A stretch of DNA of 63,537 nt from Promethearchaeota archaeon (GTDB taxonomy: Archaea > Asgardarchaeota > Lokiarchaeia > Sigyniarchaeales > SOKP01): the NCBI GenBank assembly GCA_029838195.1, contig JALGVJ010000022.1:1-63537 (forward strand), written 5' to 3'. The notes beneath the pieces are model-generated. The model saw only the letters and a program-made list of their open reading frames with translations, searched no databases and had not been told where the DNA came from. Made by a program: the position numbers and the translations under genes. Positions 1 to 4,220 of this stretch are shown here, piece by piece; position 1 is the stretch's first letter; each line of letters opens with the position of its first letter.

Positions 1-243
1 TACCGGGACACGATTCCCGTGAGCCCGTTCACTTCGCAAGCGTGCGCAGCGTGCTTTCAGCAAGCGGGCACTCTGAGTAGGACGAGGGCGAACGGCATTC
101 CCTACCATGATTTCAAGTGCGATGCGTGCGGTCGCAACACGACAAGCGAGCCTCATCTCACGCGGCACTCGAATTCCGCCCGCCTCTCGGCATTATTACT
201 TCAAGCTCATCTCGAATGCGGTGGCCTCTCGCCGCCGCCGTAA
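1..243 (+). CDS. tnpB: C-terminal fragment of a TnpB-like (IS200/IS605/IS607) RNA-guided nuclease-family protein, 5'-truncated by the window edge
   Basis: Frame open from base 1: YRDTIPVSPFTSQACAAC...FKCDACG...RHSNSARLS matches the TnpB pattern VxPxxTSQxCxxC...FxCxxCG...RDxNAAxN; clearly GC-richer than the rest of the window. Confidence 0.7.
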   Translation, partial: YRDTIPVSPFTSQACAACFQQAGTLSRTRANGIPYHDFKCDACGRNTTSEPHLTRHSNSARLSALLLQAHLECGGLSPPP

Positions 244-310
244 TCCATCCATCACCCTCCCGTTTCCTCTAACGACGGGAGGAAAGTGGTCCAACATTTG
301 GCCAAATTTA
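244..310 (+). mobile_element. Probable IS right end / omega-RNA scaffold region with hairpins
   Basis: Inverted repeat CCTCCCGT(256-263)/ACGGGAGG(275-282); perfect palindrome ATTTGGCCAAAT (296-307); switch to AT-rich parA sequence at about 310. Confidence 0.55.
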
Positions 311-572
311 TAGTTAGAGCCAGCGATTTTGCAACTTCTTCCTCTCTACGTGATTTAAGAGCTTCTGATATCGGATTATAATATTCTATCTTGTATTTTT
401 TTTCCGTATATATATAAGCGGAAGCGGATGCTTGAGGGTCTATATCGATTAATAAAACCTTTAAATTCATACTTGCCCATTCAGCAGCTATATTTACAGC
501 ACACGTGGTTTTCCCCACACCACCTTTCCAATTAATTATACTAAGAATAATACCTGAAGAAGCATTCGGCAT
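310..572 (-). pseudogene. parA: ParA/Soj-family ATPase, N-terminal part, interrupted by the TnpB element
   Basis: [10 protein letters not shown] deviant Walker A and [10 protein letters not shown]; the ORF runs into GC-rich element sequence after about 87 aa. Confidence 0.8.
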
Positions 573-1460: not shown

Positions 1461-4220
1461 ATGCCCATTTTTAATAATTTATTTAAACAAAAATACGCCC
1501 TAATTGACCAGAAAAAAGAGTCATTTAATGAAATTGCTTCTAAATGGAATGATTTTCTTAAATTAGATACGTATTTAATAGCAGAGGAGAAAAGTAAATT
1601 CCTCGAGCGATTAAATCAAGAAACTAAAGTGTCAAATAAATGGATTTATAGGATAGTACCCGATTTATATAAAAAAATTGAAAAATACTCAAGAAAAATT
1701 GAAAACTTAAAAAATCAAATTAATTCCTTTAATGAGCAATTCATAGCTCGAAGATTAAAAGAACATGACTCTTTTTTCGAAGGAAAAGACGATGGAATTA
1801 AATTTTCCTCGACCATTGAACAGAGAATTGCCATTATTAAAGATGATAAGCATAATCTTGTAGTTGCAGGAGCAGGCTCTGGGAAAACAAGTGTTCTCAC
1901 TTCTCGAATTGCTTATTTAATAAGAAGAAAGGATAAAATTGATAAAGAAAAAATATTAGCGTTGGCATTTACTAGAGTGGCGGCAAAAGAGATGGAAGAT
2001 CGCTTAAAAAAATGGTATGGAATCGAAATTAACATATCTACGTTTCATTCTTTGGGCTATCAAATAATCCGTGAAGAAACAGGAAAAAAACCTCAGCTGC
2101 TATTTGATGGAAAAGCAAAAGAACTAAGGGAATTGATTAACCGGATATTTTTAGGAGCTCTTGATGAAGAAGAATTTCAAGGATTATTTATCGAATATCT
2201 TGCATTTCATATTGAGCAAGATCTTGAAGATGATTCTTTTGAAGATAAAGAAGAATATTATAAATATATGCGTAATAAAAAATATTCTACCTTAAACAAC
2301 ATTGAAGTTAAATCGATTTCAGAACGAGATATTGGAAATTTTTTGTTTTTGCATGGAATTACCTTCGAATACGAACCGATAGTTCAATGGGTCGATGAAA
2401 GCGAAGAGGGAAAAGAATATCGCCCGGATTTTTATTTACCCGATTATAACATCTATATTGAACATTGGGGCGTAAATGAACGTCATGAGGTGCCTTCTTG
2501 GTTCACTAAAACCACTGAAGAATATTTAAATTTAAGAAAATGGAAGTTATCTCAATTTGAAAAACATCACCAAACTTTAGTTGAAACTTGGGATTTTGAA
2601 AGAAATAATGAGGTCTTAATTCCCAATTTAAAACAAAATTTATTAAAAGTCAATCCGGAAATAAAATTCATGCCCCTTTCTTATGAAGAATTGATTGAAC
2701 GAATCCACGAATTCAAAGAAAAAAGGAATGAAGTTGCCAATCTACTTTTATCCTTTATCCAAATCGCTAAATCAAATTTCTATAAGGAAACTGACATCGA
2801 ACAAAAGCTAAAAAAGGGAAAATATTCCAAAAAGCAACAAATTTTCGGGAGAATGGCCTTAGAGATTTACCATAGATATCAAGATTATCTAAAAAAACAT
2901 GATAAAATAGATTTTAATGATATGATTAATCTTGCAGTTGATTTCATGAAAAAAAATCCCCAAAAATATATTAATCGCTATGAACACGTTTTAGTAGATG
3001 AGTTTCAAGATATCTCTTATCAACGACTCCAATTAATTAAAGGATTTGTAAATGAAAATTCGAATACAAAATTATTTTGCGTCGGAGATGATTGGCAAAG
3101 CATTTATCAATTTACAGGAAGCGATGTTAGATTTTTTATATATTTCCAAGATTATTTTCCAAATCCCGAAATTAGTTATCTAGAAAAAAATTTTCGGAGT
3201 TCTAAAAAAATTATTGAAGTTTCTAATGAACTCATTTCAAAAAATAGAGAGCAATTGAAGAAACAGGTACAATCTCAGAAAGAATTAGGTAATCCTCCGT
3301 CTCTTTTTGAATTATCGAAAAAAACCTCTTATTCTATTAAAAATCAAATACATCATGTATATAAATTAATTAAATTATTGCTTTCGGAAGGTATTCAAGA
3401 AAATGAACTTATGGTCCTTTCAAGATTTAATTACATCTTAAAACAATTAGAAATTAAATGTGGTGCAGATGGAATCGCTACAGAACGTAAAGTTAATGGA
3501 ATGCGTTTTTATAGTGCACACGCCTCCAAGGGTTCAGAAAGCGAACACGTGATTATAATTAATATTACGTCGGGACTCCATGGTTTTCCTTCTGAAATCC
3601 AAGATTCTTCAGTTTTAGAAGTGGTCAAACGTTTTGAAGCAAAAAAGTATTTAGAGGAGGAAAGAAGGCTCTTTTATGTAGCCCTCACGCGAGGAAAAAA
3701 ATTTCTCTTCCTTTTCACGATCGAAGGTAATCATTCTCTCTTTTTAGATGAAATTCGACCTTATTTGAAAATCATTCACGTATCTGATTCAAGCATGTGG
3801 GATGATATTATTAGCAAATACATGCCAAAAATATTACGGGGTGAGCAAATCGAACCTTCAGAATTCTGCCCCAAATGCGGCAAGCTATTAAGGAAAGTTG
3901 AGGGAAAGCATGGACCTTTCTTAAGTTGCTCAGGGTATCCTAAATGTACTTACACCATTGATATTATACAAGAAGACGATATCACGTGCCCCTTGTGTGG
4001 AAGGAAATTAGTTATTCGAAAGGGAAAATATGGTCCGTTTCTAGGTTGTATCGGATATCCAAAATGTACCTTCACTTTTAATTTAACCTTAACTATTAAG
4101 AATAAAGATCGAATCTATTGCCCCCGCTGCGGGAATTGTTTAATTTTTCAAGTAAAAAAAGAAAACAGGTTTTTAATCTGTACAAATTTTTCCGTTTGTA
4201 AATTTTCCTTAAAAATTTAA
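1461..4220 (+). CDS. UvrD/helicase IV-like SF1 helicase with inserted PD-(D/E)XK-like domain and three C-terminal topoisomerase-type C4 Zn ribbons
   Basis: AGAGSGKT, LVDEFQD, GDDWQSIY, EEERRLFYVALTR; insert KSISE...YRPDFYL...YIEHWG; CPKCG...CSGYPKC repeats. Confidence 0.9.
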   Translation: MPIFNNLFKQKYALIDQKKESFNEIASKWNDFLKLDTYLIAEEKSKFLERLNQETKVSNKWIYRIVPDLYKKIEKYSRKIENLKNQINSFNEQFIARRLKEHDSFFEGKDDGIKFSSTIEQRIAIIKDDKHNLVVAGAGSGKTSVLTSRIAYLIRRKDKIDKEKILALAFTRVAAKEMEDRLKKWYGIEINISTFHSLGYQIIREETGKKPQLLFDGKAKELRELINRIFLGALDEEEFQGLFIEYLAFHIEQDLEDDSFEDKEEYYKYMRNKKYSTLNNIEVKSISERDIGNFLFLHGITFEYEPIVQWVDESEEGKEYRPDFYLPDYNIYIEHWGVNERHEVPSWFTKTTEEYLNLRKWKLSQFEKHHQTLVETWDFERNNEVLIPNLKQNLLKVNPEIKFMPLSYEELIERIHEFKEKRNEVANLLLSFIQIAKSNFYKETDIEQKLKKGKYSKKQQIFGRMALEIYHRYQDYLKKHDKIDFNDMINLAVDFMKKNPQKYINRYEHVLVDEFQDISYQRLQLIKGFVNENSNTKLFCVGDDWQSIYQFTGSDVRFFIYFQDYFPNPEISYLEKNFRSSKKIIEVSNELISKNREQLKKQVQSQKELGNPPSLFELSKKTSYSIKNQIHHVYKLIKLLLSEGIQENELMVLSRFNYILKQLEIKCGADGIATERKVNGMRFYSAHASKGSESEHVIIINITSGLHGFPSEIQDSSVLEVVKRFEAKKYLEEERRLFYVALTRGKKFLFLFTIEGNHSLFLDEIRPYLKIIHVSDSSMWDDIISKYMPKILRGEQIEPSEFCPKCGKLLRKVEGKHGPFLSCSGYPKCTYTIDIIQEDDITCPLCGRKLVIRKGKYGPFLGCIGYPKCTFTFNLTLTIKNKDRIYCPRCGNCLIFQVKKENRFLICTNFSVCKFSLKI

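Follow-up and report, generated by a model that had tools for sequence, protein, structure and literature searches.

The right end of a probable Asgard IS607-family transposon with a large TnpB/Cas12-fold protein, a RuvC-III histidine and a predicted guide RNA

The window (the whole stretch of 63,537 nucleotides analyzed here) is contig C76 of a 4.5-Mb metagenome-assembled genome (MAG) with a GC content of 33%, and its position 1 is the contig end. GC content is about 60% up to position ~300 and then steps down to about 33%. The features at this end of the window are as follows.

1-319, plus strand: right end of an IS607-type transposon, present in multiple copies and here splitting a partition-ATPase gene.
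1-243, plus strand: 3' part of the nuclease gene, i.e., the last 80 codons and the TAA stop (241-243) of a gene for a ~900-aa TnpB/Cas12-superfamily protein; the start of the contig cuts off the rest.
43-129, plus strand: C4 zinc ribbon (TNB domain), with CAAC at 43-54 and CDAC at 118-129.
163-180, plus strand: RuvC-III motif R-H-S-N-S-A, with the His codon (166-168) at the position of the catalytic Asp of DRDxNAAxN.
158-319, plus strand: predicted reRNA (omega-RNA) scaffold, its 5' limit estimated from deletion derivatives.
256-282, plus strand: conserved stem-loop, with arms at 256-264 and 274-282 and a 9-nt loop, UCCUCUAAC, at 265-273.
267-273, plus strand: loop half of the predicted pseudoknot, CUCUAAC, the exact complement of 313-319.
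287-307, plus strand: second stem with the TTTG(G/T)CCA motif, a candidate TnpA-binding repeat, including a palindrome at 296-307.
313-319, plus strand: element terminus GUUAGAG, the 3' half of the predicted pseudoknot, ending at the boundary common to all copies.
320-~339, plus strand: predicted guide, lying in the host flank antisense to parA, its length assumed by analogy.
320-572, minus strand: 5' part of a ParA-family ATPase gene (residues 1 to 84 of a 317-aa type), with a Walker A motif (Pfam AAA_31/CbiA).

Copies of positions 1 to 319 recur in the MAG, at the start of contig C23 with 96% identity, at the ends of C70 and C72 with 93 to 95% identity, and as shorter internal copies on C72, C1, C84 and C35 with 81 to 88% identity; the last ~56 nucleotides have further copies on C1, C26, C47 and C35. 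Four element copies are located at contig ends, as is expected of a repeat that breaks assemblies. Comparison of the copies, run to define the ends of the element, yielded a shared right end and a shared left end. All of the right ends, 13 aligned ones from this genome (~16 were found by short-query BLAST) and those of 15 foreign loci, terminate in ...TTATAG(T/A)TAGAG and diverge immediately beyond it. The window copy, like the other aligned copies, ends in ...TTATAGTTAGAG with its last base at 319, which puts the boundary at 319/320 rather than near 310, where the first-pass annotation had placed the junction with parA. At the right ends on C70 (43840-43912) and C72 (197648-197725), the TTTGGCCAAA motif is duplicated in tandem relative to the window copy, and the number of putative recombinase-binding repeats thus differs between copies.

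A step from 60 to 33% GC at a contig end, in a MAG with a contamination estimate of 7.9%, would also be seen if a GC-rich foreign contig and an AT-rich host contig had been joined chimerically or if the bin were contaminated. However, the same end meets different AT-rich host sequences in the 13 aligned copies, with unrelated flanks beyond the shared terminus and several copies deep within long contigs. The break point is exactly the family-wide terminus, and relatives in other hosts show the same GC excess over their flanks. Since the same terminus is found at many loci, the element was genuinely inserted into parA and not fused to it during assembly, and we regard an artifact as extremely improbable.

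The other end of the element was defined from the internal copy on C1, in which the 3' ~210 nucleotides are joined to a different 5' part that starts an open reading frame (ORF) with a MerR-type helix-turn-helix (HTH). This left end, AG-TCGCCGACTAGTCAAACC... with AC directly before it, occurs nine times in the genome. A search for tnpA, which is of the IS607 serine-recombinase type, found the gene or stubs of it behind the shared left end on C3, C62, C5, C24 and C1. It is not visible in the window because the contig ends. In all seven homologous contexts shown, a tnpA gene of ~200 to 212 codons (MerR plus Resolvase) lies directly upstream of the nuclease gene; it scores 168 bits on the NCBIfam model NF033518 ("IS607 family transposase"; cutoff, 110). 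The element thus combines a serine recombinase with an N-terminal MerR-type HTH upstream of an accessory gene with defined ends at different sites and no long target duplication (9 left and ~16 right ends, unrelated flanks).

Every left end begins with AG, and AC precedes this AG at all 13 left ends examined. On C26, a right end abuts a left-end tip, with a single AG common to both. The presence of AG at every right-end terminus and left-end start, and of one AG where the two ends abut, identifies the final AG (318-319) as the probable crossover dinucleotide; the target or TAM would be of the AC-AG type.

Several derivatives share these ends. A 758-bp element on C3, lying between the left end and the shared right-end terminus, has the serine recombinase as its sole coding content, and mini-elements on C1 (384 bp) and C72 (~240 bp) are bracketed by the same ends. 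These derivatives argue for past mobility. There is also a family of ~395-bp mini-elements with an ACAGTCG-type left end, the hairpin/pseudoknot right end and no ORF, present in four copies that are 92 to 98% identical (C1:47063-47454, C35:75906-76302, C26:68915-end and C47:1-280); they look like MITEs that retain just the guide-RNA-like module.

The only assembled 5' part of a full-type element in the MAG is at C5:3-1208 (minus strand; locus L015, protein P0001), where the left end leads into a tnpA stub in frame with >300 residues of a GC-rich ORF left incomplete by the contig end. The stub (the HTH and the catalytic-Ser motif YGRVSS) has been joined to the N terminus of the TnpB-like ORF after an internal deletion. 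The tnpA copies at C3:48560-49140 and C62:5222-5646 (L016 and L018) are each in two frames, with the same break at an A-run in ...HEKKKV..., and the C5 copy reads across this A-run in a single frame. The split could reflect decay, homopolymer sequencing error or slippage-controlled expression of the transposase.

The first-pass annotation had suggested an element still mobile in an Asgard-like host. The Asgard host was borne out, and the multiple copies with shared ends at many sites speak for mobility in the past. No demonstrably intact full copy was seen in the MAG, where the body of the element is unassembled, tnpA on C5 is deleted and tnpA on C3 and C62 is frameshifted. Past mobility of the element is clear; its present autonomy is not. 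With the deletion on C5, the frameshifted tnpA copies and an in-frame TAG in a near-identical nuclease gene from another assembly (see below), the lineage may be decaying in this genome.

Because position 1 is the contig end, the window holds only the last 9% of the nuclease gene. Its ORF (1-240, frame 1) encodes CAAC ... CDAC ... RHSNSARLSALLLQ, the zinc finger followed by an RHSNSA motif with His in place of Asp that had been read from the sequence at first pass. This is not a chance ORF, as 78 aa of it align with the very C terminus of a 942-aa homologue, P0004, at 63% identity (E = 2e-30). With the C5 ORF as the query, we found a family of 880- to 940-aa proteins from Asgard archaea and sediment metagenomes that have no Pfam domain. 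A near-identical copy of the element (L027/P0047) lies on a 1.7-kb contig of another assembly (ENA ERZ27248118), and there the frame extends upstream through LGVDFNRIG (RuvC-I) and AWDSIGG (RuvC-II). RuvC-I and RuvC-II are likewise present in the full-length relatives, as anticipated for a true TnpB-type protein. In L027, a TAG at positions 769 to 771 takes the place of the Trp found in all homologues (FLxAW) and divides the ORF into parts of 256 and 254 codons.

A profile search of 1.8 billion representatives turned up 159 relatives. The distant ones (350 to 800 aa) score above the cutoff for PF07282 and have NTHxNAAxNI as their RuvC-III motif; those with names come from Hel-, Heimdall-, Hod- and Odinarchaeota. 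The ~900-aa family comes from Asgard MAGs, metagenomic contigs and one 3.7-kb contig in a Bathyarchaeia bin. Its distribution is patchy: it occurs in 32 of 301 sampled genomes of the phylum, and full-length forms occur in only a handful. As far as the data searched show, the family appears to be restricted to Asgard archaea. The nuclease gene is neighbored by tnpA and unrelated host genes, and no CRISPR array was found in the first 6 kb of the window or in three long homologous loci. Shorter His-type relatives at L048, L049 and L050 (365 to 646 aa) are mostly solo genes, the one at L049 lying behind a 49-aa MerR fragment; they may be domesticated copies or the remains of IS607 elements. At L020, L036, L039, L041, L044 and positions 1 to 319 of the window, the GC content of the element lies 10 to 25 points above that of the host flanks (41 versus 30%, 39 versus 26%, 65 versus 50%, 68 versus 52% and ~60 versus 33%), in hosts ranging from ~26 to ~52%.

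Membership of the family in the TnpB/Cas12 superfamily emerged only after the distant relatives had joined the profile. PF07282 gave 16 bits on the window fragment, against a cutoff of 26.3, and 9 of 16 family members fell below the threshold; a genome-wide scan with PF07282 revealed no above-threshold copy in the MAG. No NCBIfam model, including IS607_TnpB and guided_TnpB, matched the window fragment or the ~900-aa family. Pfam matches of the fragment to C2H2 zinc fingers were noise, and a 16-sequence family profile compared with the PDB gave nothing else. A 113-sequence profile, by comparison with the PDB, matched ISDra2 TnpB (E = 3.4e-10), Cas12f (E = 9e-10) and Fanzor2 (E = 6e-9), with the His of the family aligned to the catalytic Asp of DRDENAALNI (ISDra2 TnpB, Cas12f) and its RuvC-II position aligned to the catalytic Glu.

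Structure prediction agreed. The AlphaFold2 model of a full-length homologue (pLDDT, 95.5; pTM, 0.90) comprises, in order, a beta strand, a helical lobe of ~470 residues, a beta-rich WED-like region and a RuvC domain into which the zinc ribbon is inserted. The 24 best Foldseek matches of this model were all Cas12, TnpB or Fanzor proteins, and every significant match in the PDB was to Cas12f, TnpB, Fanzor2 or another Cas12 protein. The model of the C-terminal 254 aa of the window lineage (pLDDT, 93) matched Cas12f (9nzs) with a Z score of 13.0 (190 residues aligned, 4.1 Å), Fanzor2 with a Z score of 11.6 and ISDra2 TnpB (8h1j) with a Z score of 11.2. In both models, the His sits at the start of the last RuvC helix. 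Given an RNase H-fold RuvC domain with a zinc-ribbon TNB domain set into it, significant matches of broadened profiles to TnpB and two confident models, the ~900-aa family belongs to the TnpB/Cas12 superfamily. The TnpB identity proposed at first pass therefore stands at the level of the superfamily; with ~900 aa and a ~470-aa helical lobe, these proteins are Cas12 sized, whereas a typical TnpB has ~400 aa.

We counted the catalytic columns among 113 cluster representatives with ≤50% mutual identity, all named ones of which are from Asgard archaea. RuvC-I is D in 103 of 106; RuvC-II is D or E in 98 of 99, the ~900-aa family having D and the shorter relatives having E; and RuvC-III is H in 90 of 97 (D in 2). 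The four zinc-ribbon Cys columns are C in 95/96, 42/49, 95/96 and 87/89 relatives, and the three catalytic positions are conserved as strongly as these ligands. The substitution is thus not private to the window copy, and conservation of the His on a par with the other catalytic positions and the zinc ligands marks it as an ancestral, selected state rather than a lesion of this copy. The family departs from the canonical D-E-D triad by a conserved variant rather than by loss.

Altered RuvC-III sites have precedents. In the census by Altae-Tran et al. (2023; PMC10691335), six large TnpB branches with altered RuvC-III are reported, and His-type branches among them are predicted from their conservation to be active, with rearranged active sites. 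The first-pass annotation had asked whether His might be normal in active relatives: it is normal in the relatives, and the His-type branches already described are predicted to be active (PMC10691335). A His also serves in the related RNase H-fold active site of Argonaute, as part of its DEDH tetrad. We know of no TnpB or Cas12 protein with a RuvC-III His that is known to cleave. From the conservation pattern, we infer that the His is a working active-site residue in place of the RuvC-III Asp and not the mark of a dead enzyme.

The first-pass annotation had drawn an analogy to the nuclease-dead TldR repressors, and a wider version of this idea is that the His, together with the Glu-to-Asp change at RuvC-II, abolishes cleavage and leaves an RNA-guided DNA binder that steers the transposon or represses its target, like Cas12k or TldR. 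The departure from D-E-D and the enlarged REC lobe, which shows functional divergence, would suit such a binder, and the census records inactivated TnpB and Cas12 lineages (PMC10691335). Yet all three catalytic positions are held as firmly as the zinc ligands across representatives of ≤50% identity, neither the zinc ribbon nor the RuvC-III helix has been lost, and the gene remains within IS607 elements at varied sites rather than beside a regulated host gene; moreover, the census reads conserved His substitutions as rearranged active sites (PMC10691335), and the Argonaute His works in a related fold. With His family wide and active His branches already predicted, a TldR-like dead repressor is unlikely, and we judge the wider version of a noncleaving binder unlikely as well.

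The noncoding right end (~76 nt) is conserved in 15 loci whose proteins share down to ~35 to 36% identity with the reference homologue. The hairpin at 256-282, noted at first pass, is real: it is the RNAalifold consensus of the 15 loci, with compensatory changes in 4 of its 7 pairs, and pairing is maintained through CCCG/CGGG, GCGGG/CCCGC and CCCCA/UGGGG variants. Its loop pairs with the element terminus. All 7 pairs of this pseudoknot form in 15 of 15 loci, and L038 and L040 carry the compensatory change CUCUAUC/GAUAGAG, so that covariation in the pseudoknot amounts to one compensatory event. For the hairpin and pseudoknot together, about 99 to 99.5% of cells were paired across the 15 loci, and the observed covariation score was reached by 0 of 500 shuffles. 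Just the last ~155 to 160 nt are left in three derivatives that arose independently by deletion or as solo remnants (C72:176874-177031, C84:110814-110967 and C35:140770-140915; 81 to 88% identity), and the scaffold is therefore likely to be about this long.

The second hairpin that the first-pass annotation had drawn at 296-307 is instead a loopless, perfect 12-nt DNA palindrome (ATTTGG/CCAAAT). A weaker stem, 287-291/300-304, matches one that covaries by eye in relatives, where GGACA/UGUCC is replaced by GAACA/UGUUC in L021 and L033 (a change not formally counted). Each right end has one or two copies of the TTTG(G/T)CCA motif, and each left end has the motif in inverted orientation. A search of positions 1 to 600 with Rfam at permissive E values returned nothing. 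Two other candidate structures were discarded: pairing of the terminus with CUCGAAUU in the codons of the His motif shows no covariation and fails in L038, and a hairpin predicted for the extreme 3' end of the ORF is not conserved in other copies.

In ISDra2, the nucleotides flanking the guide pair with the apical loop as a pseudoknot, and, according to the headline of the same report, a conserved pseudoknot is required for the activity of the TnpB protein of ISXfa1, an IS607 element (Yoon et al., PMC10711439). By analogy, the pairing of the hairpin loop with the terminus is probably the guide-adjacent pseudoknot of a predicted reRNA, and the guide would begin at 320. A guide drawn from the parA flank, as first proposed, is therefore the expected architecture, although with its predicted start at 320 and not at 311.

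The hairpin and the complementarity of the terminus could instead be features through which the serine recombinase recognizes the DNA, with no RNA structure involved, given that TTTGTCCA-type repeats are present in both ends and that the terminus contains the probable crossover dinucleotide. Serine recombinases act on duplex DNA, however, where covariation that preserves the pairing of a stem has no obvious role, and the complementarity of loop and terminus with its compensatory change fits the pseudoknot described for TnpB reRNAs (PMC10711439). The tnpA-only element on C3 separates the two: it has kept the terminal TTTGTCCA repeats and lacks the hairpin, so that the latter belongs with the nuclease/RNA module and not with the recombinase. 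We consider recognition at the DNA level quite improbable as the explanation of these features.

Taken together, these results favor the view, to which we give a probability of roughly 0.7, that positions 1 to 319 are the right end of an Asgard IS607-family insertion sequence encoding a large His-type TnpB/Cas12-fold protein and a predicted guide RNA from the right end and its flank, inserted into parA. As reconstructed from relatives, the full element would run from a left end, AG-TCGCCGACTAG..., through tnpA (the MerR-HTH serine recombinase) and the ~900-aa nuclease gene to the noncoding right end of ~76 nt. The protein would consist of a WED domain, the REC-like helical lobe of ~470 aa and a RuvC domain split by the C4 zinc ribbon. 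A transcript of ~158-319 continuing into the flank (320-~339) may form the guide RNA, and the protein-RNA complex might recognize an unoccupied site (an AC-AG-type motif plus flank sequence) and cut there. Such cutting of the empty site would favor retention or homing of the transposon, as for the TnpBs of IS605 and IS607 elements. We also considered a group II intron whose maturase has an HNH-type tail, as this too would be a GC-rich structured repeat in an AT-rich genome, but rejected it: Rfam intron domains are absent, and the IS607 ends and tnpA are clear.

The closest characterized counterparts are the IS607 elements ISXfa1 (PMC10711439) and ISFba1 (PDB 8iaz). They share with the element described here a serine-recombinase tnpA upstream, a nuclease gene that runs into the right end, a right-end RNA (predicted here) with a guide-adjacent pseudoknot, and insertion at matching dinucleotides (PMC10711439) without evident target duplication, AG being the probable dinucleotide here. 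ISFba1 TnpB also has the RuvC plus zinc-ribbon fold and ranked 8th in the Foldseek search. The differences lie in the protein, which has ~900 aa with a ~470-aa helical lobe against roughly 400 aa for IS607 TnpB, in the triad (D-D-H against D-E-D) and in the probable core (AG against GG).

Among the RuvC-III-rearranged branches described in the census, RIIIr-4 and the archaeal RIIIr-6/Ser-6 resemble this family in having a clade-conserved Asp-to-His change and being predicted to be active; some such branches are described as nearly exclusive to archaea and some as serine recombinase associated (PMC10691335). RIIIr-4 is described there as having His at RuvC-III, lacking the C4 zinc finger and including some members with MazE/RHH (PMC10691335), whereas the present family retains the C4 finger, is neighbored by an IS607 tnpA and so does not fall into that branch as described.

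TldRs are likewise derived from TnpB and have an altered RuvC site. The analogy breaks down on each defining feature, however: TldRs lack catalytic residues or the C-terminal part, do not move and lie beside the host genes that they regulate, whereas this family has a complete C terminus and conserved triad positions and is encoded in a multicopy transposon. Cas12f and other type V effectors give the best structural matches (Z scores of 12 to 13 over ~190 residues of RuvC plus TNB) and share the WED-REC-WED-RuvC order and the Cas12-like size, but no array or cas genes lie nearby here, the guide is predicted to come from the transposon flank and the RuvC-III position is His. Fanzor2 (PDB 9b0l) has the same fold (Z score, 11.6; profile E = 6e-9), and an IS607-related ancestry has been proposed for it (PMC10711439). 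Unlike the present family, Fanzor2 is eukaryotic or from giant viruses, and since it is no closer than bacterial TnpB or Cas12f in any score, these comparisons show no special link between Asgard archaea and eukaryotes.

TnpB-family nucleases are the ancestors of Cas12 and a source of compact genome editors. To our knowledge, no family has been characterized that combines a strictly conserved RuvC-III His with Cas12-like size while residing in an IS607 transposon and with confinement, in the data searched, to Asgard archaea. We tentatively raise a bolder possibility, which we hold to be doubtful: that the Asgard-centered D-(D/E)-H clade is a working RNA-guided nuclease with a different active-site chemistry (e.g., altered metal use, nicking or substrate choice) and that in its ~900-aa members TnpB has grown to Cas12 size independently, within a transposon and without a CRISPR array. 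If true, large RNA-guided effectors would have evolved by a second route as well, and the family would offer a new scaffold for editors. The main value of the element is as a test case for whether and how His-type RuvC sites cut DNA, and it makes a convenient test system, with defined ends, a clear predicted guide boundary, a predicted pseudoknot with a natural compensatory variant and mini-elements that appear to carry the RNA module alone. Under standard annotation, the ~900-aa proteins are "hypothetical."

For the host genome, the element accounts for several contig breaks and for the loss of a ParA-type gene. The disruption of parA called at first pass was confirmed, the minus-strand N terminus of ParA abutting the element terminus. 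Over its full length (100% coverage), the ParA fragment is 70 to 75% identical to orthologues of 317 aa that are annotated as ParA in MAGs of Promethearchaeota and Thorarchaeota, and the insertion cuts the 317-aa type after residue 84. The C-terminal two-thirds of the gene was not found in the MAG with Pfam AAA_31, among paralogues, by tblastn with a 317-aa orthologue or beside the left ends on C5 and C24. The insertion has presumably inactivated this ATPase gene. Further into the window, positions 1461 to 4220 (plus strand) encode a 919-aa UvrD/REP-type helicase (Pfam PF00580, 2.9e-50) with three C-terminal topoisomerase-type C4 zinc ribbons (PF01396, three times).
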